Positions 42,220 to 47,207 of a stretch of 58,134 nt of DNA are shown one piece after another. Below the pieces are notes generated by a model that was not told the DNA's origin, made no database searches, and was given only the letters and a program-made list of their open reading frames with translations. The stretch lies in the NCBI GenBank assembly GCA_964366435.1, contig CAYITJ010000001.1:1-58134 (forward strand), given 5' to 3'. Every line of letters starts with the position of its first letter. The stretch's first letter is position 1. The stretch comes from an uncultured Candidatus Saccharibacteria bacterium (GTDB lineage Bacteria; Patescibacteriota; Minisyncoccia; Phycocordibacterales; Phycocordibacteraceae). The position numbers and the translations under genes are program-made.

Positions 42220-43206
42220 ATGGAAACAACAACCCAGGCTAGTTCGGTATCTAAGACTTCTCCTAAGGACTTCTTTCTCTGGCTCGGTGCGATTATTGCG
42301 CTGTATGGCAGCATTACCTCCTTCATTGCACTCACGTTTGAGTACATAAATTACAGCTTCCCTGACGCACTTGCAGGCTACGGTGACCCGTACGGGGGTG
42401 CCGTGCGCTTTGCTATGGCAGCGCTTATTGTCATGGTGCCTACATTGGTCGCGCTTTTCTACTTCATCCGCAAATCAATTAGTGAGGAGCCTGGAAAAGC
42501 GAATATCTGGGTGCGTCGCTGGGCAATTGTGCTTACGCTTTTCATTGCAGCAATCACGATATTGATTGACCTCATCACGCTCATCAATACCTTCCTCGGT
42601 GGCGAGCTGAGCGTTCGCTTTGGACTTAAGGTGCTTATCGTACTCCTTGTAGCGCTCGGTGTATTCCTCCACTTCCTTGCGGACCAAAAGGGGTACTGGC
42701 TCCACAACGTAAAGAAGGCGAATATGGTGGGTATCGCGGTCGGTGTCCTCGGACTGGTAGCCGTAGTATCTGGGTTCTTTATCATCGGCACACCAGGCGA
42801 TGTGCGCATGCTTCGCTACGACGAGGAAAAGGTGCAGCACCTCTCGGGCATTCAGTCGCAGGTGGTATACCACTGGCAGACCAAGCGTGAATTGCCAGCT
42901 ACGCTCGACGAGCTTTCTGACCCACTTAGTGGCTACAGCATCCCAGTGGATTCGCAGACTGGTGGACAGTACACGTACAAAGTAGAGAGCGATCTTTCGT
43001 TCTCACTCTGCGCAACGTTCAATAAGCCAACGCCTGACATGAAGGGACGCGGAGCATACGAAACAAAGTACGATGTTTCGTACCCTGGTATCGGTGGAGT
43101 TGATGAGAATTGGCAGCACGGTGCTGGAGAGACCTGCTTTACTCGCACTATTGACCCGGACCGCTATCCAAAGACAACAGACGCGCAGGAGGCAACCCTC
43201 TACTAA
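42220..43206 (+). CDS. DUF5671-like membrane protein with an extracytoplasmic C-domain
   Basis: It carries FFLWLGAIIALYGSITSFIALTFEYINYSFPD and several further TM segments. The C-terminal part has a pilin-like ELPATLDEL..YTYKV. Confidence 0.65.
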   Translation: METTTQASSVSKTSPKDFFLWLGAIIALYGSITSFIALTFEYINYSFPDALAGYGDPYGGAVRFAMAALIVMVPTLVALFYFIRKSISEEPGKANIWVRRWAIVLTLFIAAITILIDLITLINTFLGGELSVRFGLKVLIVLLVALGVFLHFLADQKGYWLHNVKKANMVGIAVGVLGLVAVVSGFFIIGTPGDVRMLRYDEEKVQHLSGIQSQVVYHWQTKRELPATLDELSDPLSGYSIPVDSQTGGQYTYKVESDLSFSLCATFNKPTPDMKGRGAYETKYDVSYPGIGGVDENWQHGAGETCFTRTIDPDRYPKTTDAQEATLY

Positions 43207-43218
43207 TCTTGGGCTGGT

Positions 43219-46080
43219 ATGGCAAAAGAGAAATATAACCACGCTGACTTAGATAAACGCGCGCAAGCAGCGTGGGCTGCAGCAGAGTTGCATACAACAG
43301 ACCTTACCAACACCGAGAAGGACCCGTACTACCTGCTCTTTGAGTTCCCGTATCCGTCTGGGGACCTCCATATTGGCCACTGGTATGCGTTCGCGTTGTG
43401 CGACGTATACGCGCGCATGCTGCGCCAGCAGGGAAAAAATGTGCTTTTCCCTATAGGGTTTGACGCATTCGGCCTTCCTACAGAGAACGCAGCTATTAAG
43501 AACGAAGTGGATCCACGCGAATGGACACTGAAGAATATTGAGCGCATGCGCGGACAGATTCGGTCCATGGGTACAACCGTTGACTGGACTCGAGAGGTTG
43601 TGTCTTCGGAGCCAGAGTACTACCGCTGGACACAGTGGCTCTTTGCGAAGCTGTTTGAGCAGGGGCTTGCCGAGCGCAGACTAGCGCCCGTGAAGTGGTG
43701 CCCAAAGGACCAAACGGTACTTGCGCACGAGCAAGTACTTGATGGTAAGTGTGAACGTTGCGGCACGGAAGTGGAGGAGAAGCACCTCACGCAGTGGTTC
43801 CTAAAAATTACCAAGTACGCACAGCGTCTGCTTGAGGATTTGGAGCCACTTCCATGGCGCCAGGAGATAAAGGATGCGCAGCGCGCGTGGATTGGAGAAT
43901 CGAAGGGTGCGAAGCTCTCCTTTGCTATTAGTGGCCGCGAAGAGTCCATAGAAGTATTTACCACACGCCCTGATACGTTGTTTGGTGCTACCTACGTAGT
44001 ACTTGCGCCAGAACACGAGCTTGTCGCCACACTGCTTGATGCGGTGACCAATAAGGATGCGGTATTAACCTATCGCAAGCAGACCGCGCAGAAGTCGGAG
44101 CGTGAGCGCTCAGAGAACAAACAGAAGACCGGCGTACAGCTTGAAGGAGTAATGGCAGTAAACCCCGCCACCAAGGAGGAGATTCCCGTATACATTGCTG
44201 ATTATGTGCTTGCTACCTACGGAACCGGTGCAGTGATGGCGGTGCCCGCGCACGATGAGCGCGATTTTGAGTTCGCTACATTGAAGAGCCTTCCTATTAA
44301 GCATGTGGTCATGCCAGCGCGAGTTGATAACCGCAATCCACATCAAGAAGGGAAGGAGCTAACATATCGTTCAATTGTAATTGCCATTGTGCACAATCCT
44401 CGAACGGATACCTACCTTACCCTCAAGTGGAAGCAGCAGCCATGGATTACGTTTGTAACGGGCGGAGTGGAAGAGAATGAGGATGTTGTAGAGGCTGCTA
44501 AGCGAGAAGTGGTAGAGGAGACGGGTTACACAGACGTGACCTTTAAACAGGTGCTTGGTGGTCCAACGCAGTCTTCATTTTATGCAGCTCACAAGGGTGT
44601 GAACCGATACAATCACGCTACGACGGTTCTTTTTGAGCTTGAGAGCGACGCGCAGGAACCACTTTCAGAGGAAGAGAATGCTCTGCATGAGCTTGCATGG
44701 CGAACGAGAAAGCAGATTGAAAACGACCGACTGCAGCATGCGGAAATGGATATCATCCTAGAGCGCCTCTTCAAAGGCGAGACAGCGATGACCGAGGACG
44801 GTGTGCTCGTTAACTCGGGAGAATTCTCTGGTCGCAACAACCGCGAGGCACTCGAGGAGATTGTTGCGTTTGCTGGGGGAGAAATGGTGACCAACTACCG
44901 CATACGCGACTGGCTCGTGTCTCGCCAGCGCTACTGGGGCTGCCCCATTCCAATTGTGTACGACCCAGAAGGGAATGCGCACCCTGTTCCGCCTGAGCAC
45001 TTGCCGTGGTTACTGCCAACCGACGTCACGAGTGGAACACGAGCTGACGGACAGTCGCCACTTGCAGGCTCCGATGAGCTACGCGAGCGTGTGGTCCGCA
45101 TATTTGGTGAGGGATGGACTCCTGAATACGACACGCTAGACGTGTTTGTGGATTCTTCTTGGTACTACTTGCGCTACCTTGCCCCAAACAGCGACACTGC
45201 GTTCTCCGACACAGCCCTTATGAAGAAGTGGCTTCCGGTAGACCGCTACTCGGGTGGCGCAGAGCACACCACCGTGCACTTGCTGTATTCTCGTTTCTTT
45301 TACAAAGCACTCCACGACTTGGCACTTGTTCCAACCGCAGAGCCGTACGTAGAGCGCTACAATCGCGGACTCATTCTAGGACCTGATGGTCAGAAGATGA
45401 GTAAGCGTTGGGGGAACGTAGTGAATCCTGACGAGATGGTGGAGAAGTTTGGCGCAGACGCTGTGCGCATGTACCTGGCATTCATTGGTCCCTACAATGA
45501 GCCAGGCAATTACCCATGGAAGCTGGACGGGGTACAGGGCACCCGTAAGTTCTTGGACCGTGTGTACCAGCTGCGCGAGAAGGTAGGCGAAGCAGAAGTG
45601 TCTAAGGAGCTTGCAAGCGCGCTTGTGAAGGCCACAAACAAAGTGACCGAAGACACCGAGCGCTTCAAGTTAAACACTGCGGTGGCTGCACTCATGGTGC
45701 TGGTGCGCGAGTTTGAAGCACTACCGATAGTGCCTCGTTCAGCGTTTAAGCAACTCCTCACTATCCTCGCTCCCTATGCGCCACACCTAAGTGAGCACCT
45801 CTGGCAAGAGCAGGGCGGGGGCGGCAGTGTGCACCAAACTTCGTGGCCAGAGCGAGTTCAAGAGGAGGTGTCCGAAGTAACTATCGGGGTGCAGGTAAAT
45901 GGTAAGAAGCGTGGTGAAATCACGTTATCACCAGAGGCGACAGAGGCTGAGGCGGTGCTCGCGGCAAGGGCCATTACAGCGGTTGAGGGGGCACTTTTCC
46001 ACAGGGCTCCTGCCCGAGTGGTGTATGTCCCAGGCCGTATATTGAACCTGGTAGCAGATAACACCGGAGAGGGTGTGTAA
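43219..46080 (+). CDS. leuS: leucine--tRNA ligase with an inserted Nudix domain
   Basis: It has HIGH (DLHIGH), the editing-domain motifs TTRPDTLFGATY and VPAHDERDFEFA, KMSKRWGN and the RDWLVSRQRYWG motif. The Nudix box GGVEENEDVVEAAKREVVEETGY lies at residues 415-437. Confidence 0.95.
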   Translation: MAKEKYNHADLDKRAQAAWAAAELHTTDLTNTEKDPYYLLFEFPYPSGDLHIGHWYAFALCDVYARMLRQQGKNVLFPIGFDAFGLPTENAAIKNEVDPREWTLKNIERMRGQIRSMGTTVDWTREVVSSEPEYYRWTQWLFAKLFEQGLAERRLAPVKWCPKDQTVLAHEQVLDGKCERCGTEVEEKHLTQWFLKITKYAQRLLEDLEPLPWRQEIKDAQRAWIGESKGAKLSFAISGREESIEVFTTRPDTLFGATYVVLAPEHELVATLLDAVTNKDAVLTYRKQTAQKSERERSENKQKTGVQLEGVMAVNPATKEEIPVYIADYVLATYGTGAVMAVPAHDERDFEFATLKSLPIKHVVMPARVDNRNPHQEGKELTYRSIVIAIVHNPRTDTYLTLKWKQQPWITFVTGGVEENEDVVEAAKREVVEETGYTDVTFKQVLGGPTQSSFYAAHKGVNRYNHATTVLFELESDAQEPLSEEENALHELAWRTRKQIENDRLQHAEMDIILERLFKGETAMTEDGVLVNSGEFSGRNNREALEEIVAFAGGEMVTNYRIRDWLVSRQRYWGCPIPIVYDPEGNAHPVPPEHLPWLLPTDVTSGTRADGQSPLAGSDELRERVVRIFGEGWTPEYDTLDVFVDSSWYYLRYLAPNSDTAFSDTALMKKWLPVDRYSGGAEHTTVHLLYSRFFYKALHDLALVPTAEPYVERYNRGLILGPDGQKMSKRWGNVVNPDEMVEKFGADAVRMYLAFIGPYNEPGNYPWKLDGVQGTRKFLDRVYQLREKVGEAEVSKELASALVKATNKVTEDTERFKLNTAVAALMVLVREFEALPIVPRSAFKQLLTILAPYAPHLSEHLWQEQGGGGSVHQTSWPERVQEEVSEVTIGVQVNGKKRGEITLSPEATEAEAVLAARAITAVEGALFHRAPARVVYVPGRILNLVADNTGEGV

Positions 46081-46133: not shown

Positions 46134-47207
46134 ATGGCTAAATCTGTGGCAAAATCAGCAAAGAAGGCACCTGCGAAATCTGTCGCAGCTCTTTCCTTTG
46201 ACTCTACGGTTCTGGTAAAGAAGCTTCTTGCTGAGGTGCCTGAACGCGCCCGCGAGGTGCTCTCACTACGCTTCGGTCTAGGCACTTCTAGTGAGCGTCA
46301 GACGCTTGAAGCTATCGGCGAGCGCTGGGGTATTACTCGTGAGCGTGTACGTCAGATTGAGGCTTCAGGTATTGAGGCGGTACGCGCTGGCGCTGCGTTT
46401 AAGGCATCCACCGCCGCGTTTACCGAACTTGCAGCACACATTGAATCACTCGGTGGGGTTGTGCCGGAGGATGTACTTCTTTCAGGACTTGCATCCGACG
46501 AGAAGTCTCGTAATCGTTTCCGCTTCCTCCTCGTAGTTGGAAGTGAATTTTTCCGCGAGCGCGAGACCGACGATTTCTATGCTCGCTGGCACGTGGACCA
46601 GAAGACTGCAGAGCTCGTGCACGGCGCGCTTACCCGCCTCTACAGCACACTCGACGATGCTGAGGTGCTCTCTGAAGGAGACATCATTAACCGTTTCCTT
46701 GATGAGTTGAAGGGCGTGAACGCTGCCTACCAAAACGAAGAGATTCTAAAGCGCTGGCTTTCAATTTCTAAGACTATTTCCAAGAATCCACTCTCTGAGT
46801 GGGGACGCGTGGACACGCCTGCTATTCGCACCAAGGGTATCCGTGACTACGCATACCTTGTGATTAAGCAGAAGGGAGAGCCAATGCACTTTGGCGACGT
46901 TGCGAAGTCTATCGTGTCACTTTTTGGTAAAAAGGCGCACGTGGCAACCACCCACAACGAGCTTATTAAGGATTCCCGCTTCGTGCTCGTCGGTCGCGGA
47001 CTCTACGCGCTATCCGAGTGGGGCTTCCAGCCTGGCGTCGTGCGCGACGTTATCAAGGAGGCCCTCGCAAAGAAGCCCCTTACCCGCGACGAGGTAATCG
47101 CTGCCGTAAAGAAGGTGCGCTACGTAAAGGACAACACCATTTTGGTAAACCTTGGCGACACCCGCTACTTCAGGCGCGCAAAAGACGGCACCTACACAGT
47201 AGCCTAA
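46134..47207 (+). CDS. sigma-70 region-4-like HTH plus a C-terminal HARE-HTH-like domain protein
   Basis: The region-4 part reads RAREVLSLRFGLG..QTLEAIGERWGITRERVRQIEASG. The C-terminal part reads HFGDVAKSI..RFVLVGRGLYALSEWG. Confidence 0.65.
   Translation: MAKSVAKSAKKAPAKSVAALSFDSTVLVKKLLAEVPERAREVLSLRFGLGTSSERQTLEAIGERWGITRERVRQIEASGIEAVRAGAAFKASTAAFTELAAHIESLGGVVPEDVLLSGLASDEKSRNRFRFLLVVGSEFFRERETDDFYARWHVDQKTAELVHGALTRLYSTLDDAEVLSEGDIINRFLDELKGVNAAYQNEEILKRWLSISKTISKNPLSEWGRVDTPAIRTKGIRDYAYLVIKQKGEPMHFGDVAKSIVSLFGKKAHVATTHNELIKDSRFVLVGRGLYALSEWGFQPGVVRDVIKEALAKKPLTRDEVIAAVKKVRYVKDNTILVNLGDTRYFRRAKDGTYTVA

Follow-up and report, generated by a model that had tools for sequence, protein, structure and literature searches.

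A Nudix hydrolase domain nested in the editing domain of leucyl-tRNA synthetase in Patescibacteria

The leuS gene of an uncultured Candidatus Saccharibacteria bacterium (GenBank assembly GCA_964366435.1; contig CAYITJ010000001.1, of which positions 1 to 58,134, forward strand, form the window analysed here) encodes a bacterial-type leucyl-tRNA synthetase (LeuRS) that almost certainly carries a genuine Nudix domain nested in its CP1 editing domain (Table 1). Such LeuRS-Nudix proteins are not rare; across much of Patescibacteria this is the usual LeuRS architecture. The best explanation we can offer for the fusion as a whole, tentatively and with slightly less than even confidence, is a bifunctional LeuRS with an active Nudix module that would clear adenylylated polyphosphates.

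In a Pfam search with the full protein, PF00293 (NUDIX) matches residues 383-506 with 48.3 bits (gathering score 21.1, E 1.3e-12), and residues 380-518 alone (139 residues; nt 44356-44772) reach 53.8 bits (E 2.7e-14). The ends of the module were set by close relatives that lack it: two of these, P0110 and P0122, read LPIVQAV-AHEGN-CYTEDGVLENSGEFSG, straight through the point of insertion, which fixes the insertion at residues 365-522 (nt 44311-44784). The editing-domain family PF13603, which matches the window LeuRS with 202 bits, is interrupted by the module between positions 149 and 152 of its 185. The sequence-only reading had proposed an intact Nudix domain of about 140 residues following the end of the editing domain; the domain itself is confirmed by Pfam, structure prediction and Foldseek, while its place and length need correcting, as it is nested inside CP1 and, judged by the insert-less relatives, is about 158 residues long. 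When aligned to the LeuRS of Thermus thermophilus (1h3n), the insertion site corresponds to residues 362-374 of that structure, the alignment stopping at 362 and restarting at 374, so the host site is a short loop: the 11 residues found there in T. thermophilus contrast with a 158-residue Nudix module in the window LeuRS. CP1 is itself an insertion in the Rossmann catalytic fold and, with Nudix inserted in CP1, the architecture is nested three deep.

An AlphaFold2 (AF2) model of the module, built from 70 aligned sequences, has a predicted local distance difference test score (pLDDT) of 94.3 and a predicted template modelling score (pTM) of 0.88. Foldseek comparison of this model with the Protein Data Bank (PDB) returned 527 matches at E<=0.001, and the 50 matches listed are all Nudix proteins, headed by 2azw from Enterococcus faecalis (E 3.2e-9, TM 0.81). 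The structure prediction that the sequence-only reading had suggested thus gives a confident Nudix fold. On Pfam score, Nudix box and an alpha/beta/alpha sandwich fold (AF2, Foldseek) the module belongs to the Nudix superfamily. In the full-length AF2 model of the window LeuRS (pLDDT 86.4, pTM 0.75) every block of ten residues between 361 and 530 scores 83-95, so no disordered linker is predicted between module and CP1. The fusion is not an assembly artefact: a continuous LeuRS-Nudix open reading frame recurs in over 110 protein clusters that are independent of one another, and all 80 of the species-representative genomes that were inspected have it.

The Nudix domain is found in 116 of the 120 best LeuRS homologues (62-93% identical), and those fused orthologues that are named are assigned to Parcubacteria, Paceibacterota, Minisyncoccia or Patescibacteria. 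The survey of LeuRS architecture in genomes of the candidate phyla radiation (CPR), suggested from the sequence at the outset, took the form of a scan of one genome per species, in which relatives of the module turned up at no fewer than 495 loci. Detailed results concern the best 80 of these; in all 80 the relative lies within a LeuRS reading frame, in genomes of Kaiser-, Buchanan-, Zambryski-, Uhr-, Taylor-, Nomura- and Berkelbacteria, Paceibacterota and others. The source annotations give the fused proteins no name beyond 'leucyl-tRNA synthetase' or 'class I tRNA ligase family protein'.

The Nudix box was correctly located at residues 415-437 from sequence (GGVEENEDVVEAAKREVVEETGY, nt 44461-44529), and reads G415-x5-E421-x7-R429-E430-V-V-E433-E434-T-G436-Y437. 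Among the 116 fused orthologues G415, E430, E433, E434 and G436 are invariant, R429 is kept in 114 and E421 in 113, so the preservation of the catalytic Glu and Arg positions first noticed in the window protein extends to 113-116 of the 116, and the objection that the box might not be conserved among orthologues falls away. The best 80 species-representative loci give a similar picture, with a canonical box in 72. Six more keep RE-x2-EE and differ upstream, five by a one-residue longer loop and L069 by Cys for the second Gly, and in L063 Ser replaces the first Glu of the EE pair. In one Taylorbacteria LeuRS-Nudix protein (L024:2936-5764) the box reads REIREKTGY, with Lys for the second Glu of the pair, and this Nudix copy is possibly inactivated.

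At the X-loop position, 17 residues past the box, begins a family-specific motif, FYAAHKGVNR, in which an aromatic pair is followed by His, Lys and Arg. Its positions are conserved in the 116 orthologues (F/Y454 in 116, F/Y455 in 111, A456 in 114, H458 in 107, K459 in 116, N462 in 109 and R463 in 109), as are E486 (114), W494 (116) and H507 (106) further along the module, and the motif at this position is invariant in free-standing homologues. All 116 orthologues have an aromatic residue at the X-loop position, and it is not tyrosine in all of them: position 454 is Phe in 94 and Tyr in 22, and position 455 is Phe in 63 and Tyr in 48, the window protein having F454 and Y455.

Selection on the module was gauged by dN/dS between the window gene and orthologues 93% and 89% identical to it. 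The module has a dN of 0.08-0.10 and the rest of the gene 0.03-0.07, and since dS is saturated (1.3-3.0) even against the 93%-identical orthologue, the comparison can be read only qualitatively: dN lies far below dS, and is 1.5-2.5 times higher in the module than in the rest of the gene. A module dN of 0.08-0.13 against a saturated dS above 1.7 is also recorded. The protein sequence of the module is thus under strong constraint, if somewhat weaker than that on the synthetase core. The Nudix segment (44311-44784) is also poorer in G+C than the rest of leuS (0.494 against 0.550 overall and 0.487 against 0.601 at third codon positions), a difference that persists although the fusion is old.

Conservation of the catalytic residues makes it probable that the module is an active enzyme. 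A Nudix fold kept as a structural, tRNA-binding or nucleotide-sensing domain, for example to offset a missing leucine-specific domain, would agree with the absence of that domain from the window LeuRS (the 1h3n chain passes from residue 579 to 637 while the query passes from 721 to 726, GPDGQ standing in place of residues 580-636) and with the degenerate box of some copies, and non-enzymatic Nudix domains do exist (PMC5389931). However, box residues kept almost without exception in the LeuRS copies would be unexpected if there were no catalysis, and relatives without the module also lack the leucine-specific domain yet are otherwise intact. As the catalytic residues are invariant, a purely structural role is unlikely, and we regard a non-catalytic module in general as very improbable.

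Outside LeuRS, the module is closest to free-standing proteins of 157-168 residues, which align to it end to end, N-terminal extension included, and are 33-44% identical in that alignment; local BLASTP gives 53% for P0001. Because they align over the whole module, a complete gene appears to have been inserted. When 1.84 billion cluster representatives were scored with a subfamily profile (the module plus 14 free-standing proteins), 1879 proteins came within E<=0.001, 319 once the threshold was tightened to E<=1e-10, and 97 with E<=1e-30; for a superfamily as large as Nudix these are few, which marks a small, distinct subfamily. Hosts were classified for the best 149 representatives by comparison with LeuRS segments of the window protein, and comprise 105 LeuRS (full-length or fragments), 33 free-standing proteins and 11 others. 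Nine of the 105 LeuRS contain two modules and two contain three, and of the 118 LeuRS modules in all, 98 occupy the CP1 site seen in the window protein, 17 sit immediately ahead of CP1, and the remaining 3 are in the second, C-terminal half of the catalytic domain. Two of the 11 others are archaeal-type prolyl-tRNA synthetases (ProRS), in which the module separates the anticodon-binding domain from the C-terminal domain, and at least five are proteins of 279-388 residues in which a diverged C-terminal piece of CP1 is joined to Nudix. The subfamily is found mainly inside aminoacyl-tRNA synthetases (aaRS).

ProRS is a class II synthetase, unrelated to LeuRS, which belongs to class I. A search with the ProRS turned up five clusters that bear Nudix, against a background of about 115 relatives, named Woesearchaeota or Nanoarchaeota, that have no insert; ProRS with the insert (P0233, P0289-P0292 and P0168) come from a small group of DPANN-like archaea. 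Among the free-standing forms, the genes of P0006 and P0012 immediately precede thrS (L005:8001-10340 and L091:5001-7365); miaA follows a few genes further on, and a gene for a DHH phosphoesterase or an ASCH/DUF3850 protein lies upstream. P0001 and P0002 adjoin no synthetase gene. In a neighbour-joining tree of the modules the three LeuRS sites and the free-standing forms are interleaved, and of the six ProRS modules examined, five fall into one group set among the LeuRS modules of site B; the tree was built from 139 columns, carries no support values and is of low resolution, so that both this grouping and a repeated movement or duplication of modules are hints only.

One locus (L001:2246-3082) contains P0009, a complete stand-alone gene within its contig whose 278-residue product joins a C-terminal piece of CP1 to Nudix; its CP1 fragment groups it with the LeuRS-derived set, and in it the editing Asp is lost (AHIEED) and there is no T-rich region. 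Further stand-alone proteins of this kind, of about 280 residues, are P0203, P0205, P0236 and P0245. A 281-residue protein with NUDIX and RNase H/RVT_3-like matches (L005:13443-14288) is encoded in the same genome as one of the free-standing Nudix genes that adjoin thrS.

In the explanation we favour, the gene would encode a bifunctional enzyme, a complete bacterial-type LeuRS together with a Nudix hydrolase, which would have arisen long ago when a whole free-standing Nudix gene, of about 160 residues, was inserted into a surface loop of CP1. The module would be an active Mg2+-dependent pyrophosphohydrolase, and its likeliest substrates would be diadenosine tetra- and triphosphate (Ap4A and Ap3A), Ap4N compounds and adenosine tetraphosphate (p4A), formed when ATP or another nucleotide, not tRNA, attacks the aminoacyl-adenylate. 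Such by-products, which double as signalling molecules, would thereby be cleared by the module at their source, and this would fit organisms with very small genomes. That dinucleoside polyphosphates (ApnN) are the physiological substrate is the weaker part of this proposal, and we consider it possible though doubtful. It is suggested by what LeuRS, ProRS and ThrRS (through the adjoining thrS) have in common, namely ATP-dependent adenylate formation, and synthesis of Ap3-5N, p4A and related compounds by aaRS is on record (PMC7705103). The X-loop sets substrate specificity in Nudix enzymes, tyrosine there marking ApnA hydrolases (Dunn 1999, cited in PMC5389931), and the His, Lys and Arg that follow the aromatic pair of the module would suit a polyphosphate chain. 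Ap4A/Ap6A hydrolases and RppH are also among the structural neighbours of the module found with Foldseek. The asymmetric ApnA hydrolases (human NUDT2, T. thermophilus Ndx1 and Chlamydia CT771) and RppH resemble the module in Nudix fold, box and an aromatic X-loop residue, and act on substrates that are products of aaRS side reactions, but the likeness is at superfamily level only, with no membership of their families by sequence.

Nudix enzymes cleave diphosphate bonds, and aminoacyl-adenylates are acyl-phosphate mixed anhydrides without such a bond. Misactivated aminoacyl-adenylates, put forward as a substrate in the sequence-only reading, are therefore chemically improbable.

A number of observations weigh against the bifunctional enzyme as proposed. 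No result singles out ApnN as the substrate of the module. The NCBIfam equivalog models for RppH, NudB, NudE, MutT, YtkD, NudF, NudI and YfcD all score no more than about 29 bits on it against cut-offs of 95-475: the best RppH model (PRK00714) reaches 24.8 bits against 116, and the best NCBIfam Nudix match of all, NudB (NF006961), 29.4 bits against 103 and in the box region only, so the module falls outside both families. With all scores so far under their cut-offs, assignment of a substrate by curated models was ruled out. Assignment by structure was likewise abandoned, as RppH, ADP-ribose pyrophosphatase, NUDT15, NudI and Ap4A/Ap6A hydrolases score indistinguishably in Foldseek. A profile search of PDB sequences with the module places AvrM14 and 2azw on top, with E values of only about 1e-5. 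The X-loop tyrosine is not strictly kept and is often phenylalanine (63 Phe and 48 Tyr at position 455 of the 116 orthologues), and LeuRS is not known as an outstanding producer of Ap4A. The closest solved structure, 2azw, is of undetermined function (PMC5389931); it is the best match of the module both in Foldseek and among single PDB sequences, and has an F-Y-x-x-H-[KR] motif after the box in common with it, but is a free-standing MutT/Nudix protein only about 20% identical to the module. Moreover, some of the ProRS boxes are degenerate, with R replaced by K or N and the first Glu missing; one is canonical.

Loss of the module counts in the same direction. Four close relatives of the window LeuRS lack it (P0037, P0051, P0110 and P0122; 71-80% identical, with best local alignments covering 45-47% of the query). 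In a tree built from the synthetase core, module-less LeuRS branch off at three points remote from one another, implying three or more independent losses, and LeuRS function in these close relatives evidently does not need the module. One loss concerns a syntenic orthologue, P0037 (L090:2690-5179), which is 80% identical over a best local alignment covering 46% of the query and shares the window's gene neighbourhood (YchF, DUF5671, leuS, a sigma-r4/HARE-HTH protein, DUF8128 and mnmA). The short loop of P0051 retains AEFASAH, reminiscent of SFYAAHK in the module, and may be a remnant of it.

In addition, Nudix is not the only enzyme domain to have entered these synthetases. P0079 has a 215-residue HAD_2 domain directly before Nudix, and P0044, P0088 and P0080 have inserts of about 140-180 residues near residue 240, for which alpha/beta-hydrolase families are recorded in P0044 and P0088 and not in P0080. 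A Taylorbacteria locus (L076:3239-8443) has an open frame of 1735 codons, 33 of them before the likely start, with three Nudix, an alpha/beta hydrolase and a HAD_2 domain; the LeuRS of L085:3338-7390 combines two Nudix domains with HAD_2, and those of L015:2708-6379 and L064:3341-6913 carry a Ser_hydrolase (PF06821) domain. Altogether the multi-insert LeuRS of CPR bacteria range from 1190 to 1735 residues, have alpha/beta-hydrolase inserts of PF06821 and PF12697 and use several surface sites, and the long variants appear at several separate places in the synthetase-core tree. The HAD gene that adjoins a free-standing Nudix gene in L004 and the HAD insert of P0079 both belong to HAD_2, a correspondence at family level only. 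An insert of about 130 residues in the LeuRS of L054:2285-6187 has no Pfam match, and a by-eye impression that it is ASCH-like was dropped for that reason.

Unrelated hydrolase inserts such as HAD_2 and Ser_hydrolase fit a general scaffold for housekeeping hydrolases as well as they fit a specific coupling. The module could then be a Nudix enzyme of the usual house-cleaning sort, with substrates such as oxidised nucleotides, ADP-ribose or further nucleoside diphosphate derivatives (NDP-X) and no mechanistic tie to aminoacylation, LeuRS being an abundant constitutive scaffold whose tolerant loops repeatedly captured small hydrolases in reduced CPR genomes. The HAD_2, alpha/beta-hydrolase and unassigned inserts at several sites and in independent lineages, the dispensability of the module, the failure of every substrate-specific model to match it and the free-standing homologues located away from aaRS genes all accord with a passenger of this kind. 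However, a random passenger would be expected in many kinds of host protein, whereas this small subfamily resides mostly in synthetases (105 LeuRS and 2 ProRS among the best 149 representatives), has entered two unrelated synthetases and three sites within LeuRS, and has other free-standing copies beside thrS. We therefore judge a mere passenger to be somewhat unlikely.

The location of the module also raises the idea of an enzyme for RNA ends, with the synthetase as a tRNA platform and the module acting in cis on a 5' pyrophosphate, an NAD or Np4N cap, or on the 3' CCA end by removal of pyrophosphate. It is textbook knowledge that CP1 receives the tRNA 3' end for editing, and of the 118 LeuRS modules 115 are within CP1 or beside it; the top structural and profile matches include E. 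coli RppH and the decapping effector AvrM14, and free-standing homologues are encoded near thrS, miaA, a DHH phosphoesterase and an ASCH-like gene. Yet the RppH models score just 18-25 bits against cut-offs of 116-259, RppH structures match no better than those of small-molecule Nudix enzymes, and mature bacterial tRNAs have a 5' monophosphate. In ProRS, moreover, the module sits between the anticodon-binding and C-terminal domains with no editing site near, and beyond the H/K/R motif it has no positively charged RNA-binding extension. An RNA-end enzyme is thus unlikely in our view. A bolder form, to which we give slightly less credence still, would have Nudix act in cis on synthetase-held tRNA as a new kind of quality control or repair, stripping a 5' triphosphate or cap, or a pyrophosphate or NDP-type block at the acceptor end. 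It would have been acquired independently by CPR LeuRS and DPANN ProRS, and together with the HAD and alpha/beta-hydrolase inserts would make multi-enzyme hubs for tRNA and nucleotide maintenance in ultra-small symbionts.

In the literature searched for such fusions we found no description of a LeuRS-Nudix or any other aaRS-Nudix fusion, the matches being unrelated co-mentions, and no dedicated NCBIfam model for LeuRS-Nudix was found; within that literature, the impression formed from sequence that the fusion is undescribed stands. In a 2026 survey of domain insertions the LeuRS editing domain is classed as 'insertion-exclusive' and never appears as a host (PMC13114784), and LeuRS-Nudix, with Nudix inserted inside CP1, is a counter-example. 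The nearest precedent in design is NadM-Nudix, an NMN adenylyltransferase joined to an ADP-ribose pyrophosphatase, which likewise pairs a HIGH-signature nucleotidyltransferase with a Nudix enzyme acting on a related product (PMC7824862, PMC5389931); unlike the window protein, in which Nudix sits within an inserted domain, it is an end-to-end fusion with another host enzyme and another Nudix clade. IleRS-GNAT (NCBIfam NF040702) is similarly a class Ia synthetase with an added small-molecule-modifying enzyme domain, but the added domain differs in fold and chemistry, and NF040702 matches the window protein with 51 bits against a cut-off of 1999, in the synthetase core only. LeuRS-Nudix is real and widespread, and its evolutionary pattern is of interest, but it is assembled from known parts and its function is unproven.

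The host of the insert is a bacterial-type LeuRS. TIGR00396 (leuS_bact) matches with 850.9 bits against a cut-off of 548.4, the match being split in two by the Nudix module, and among solved structures the protein comes closest to T. thermophilus LeuRS (1h3n, E 4e-192). The model score, the HIGH and KMSKS-type signatures and the T-rich motif and conserved Asp of CP1 place the protein among bacterial LeuRS. The first part of CP1 contains the T-rich motif TTRPDT (residues 248-253) and GTGAVMAVPAHDERD (residues 335-349) with VPAHDERD at residues 342-349, and the editing-site signatures appear intact as read from these motifs. T. thermophilus 1h3n and E. coli 4aq7 LeuRS correspond to the window protein in HIGH, KMSKS-type loop, a CP1 with T-rich and Asp motifs, and anticodon-binding and C-terminal domains; the T. 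thermophilus enzyme differs in having the leucine-specific domain, for which the window LeuRS has GPDGQ instead. This pentapeptide resembles the GKDG found in Mycoplasma mobile LeuRS (PMC3643597).

The neighbours of leuS are kept in close relatives: upstream lies a gene for a DUF5671 membrane protein (window positions 42220-43206) and downstream one for a 357-residue protein with sigma-70 region 4 and HARE-HTH (46134-47207), beyond which are genes for a 464-residue DUF8128 protein and mnmA. A search for defence systems (PADLOC) gave only a match of 16-17 bits to an unnamed candidate family, and with so low a score a defence link for the locus was rejected.

Table 1. Position of leuS and of its catalytic, editing and Nudix elements within the window
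Feature	Position (nt)	Strand	Evidence
leuS, bacterial-type leucyl-tRNA synthetase, 953 aa, with nested Nudix module	43219..46080	+	open reading frame; TIGR00396; 1h3n match
HIGH signature, class I catalytic site (aa 51-54)	43369..43380	+	read from sequence
CP1 editing domain, first part (aa 222-364)	43882..44310	+	PF13603 positions 1-149/185 match aa 222-373
Nudix module (aa 365-522), 158 aa, whole Nudix protein in CP1 surface loop	44311..44784	+	PF00293; insert-less relatives; AF2; Foldseek; free-standing homologues
Nudix box GGVEENEDVVEAAKREVVEETGY (aa 415-437), GX5EX7REUXEEXGU, Y at last position	44461..44529	+	sequence; orthologue alignment
Family-specific motif FYAAHKGVNR (aa 454-463), starting 17 residues past the box, X-loop position	44578..44607	+	conservation in orthologues and free-standing homologues
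CP1 editing domain, second part (aa 523-565), restarting at AMTEDGVLVNSGEFSG	44785..44913	+	PF13603 positions 152-182/185 match aa 520-550; 1h3n alignment restarts at residue 374
GPDGQ (aa 721-725) in place of the leucine-specific domain, then KMSKR catalytic loop (aa 726-730)	45379..45408	+	1h3n alignment; motif location

Few enzymes have been studied as thoroughly as aaRS, whose accessory domains in most cases prove to have clear roles. Here a catalytic domain of another superfamily lies inside the editing domain of an essential synthetase and is kept in hundreds of CPR species. Its recurrence at three sites in LeuRS, in the class II ProRS of DPANN archaea and beside thrS suggests that the hydrolase is genuinely connected in function with aminoacylation chemistry, and close relatives with the module deleted or with multiple inserts provide natural controls. 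If the substrate of the module should prove to be Ap4A-type nucleotides, this would be the first synthetase to carry the destroyer of its own alarmone by-product, and the long-debated question of whether Ap4A is signal or waste would become testable within a single polypeptide.

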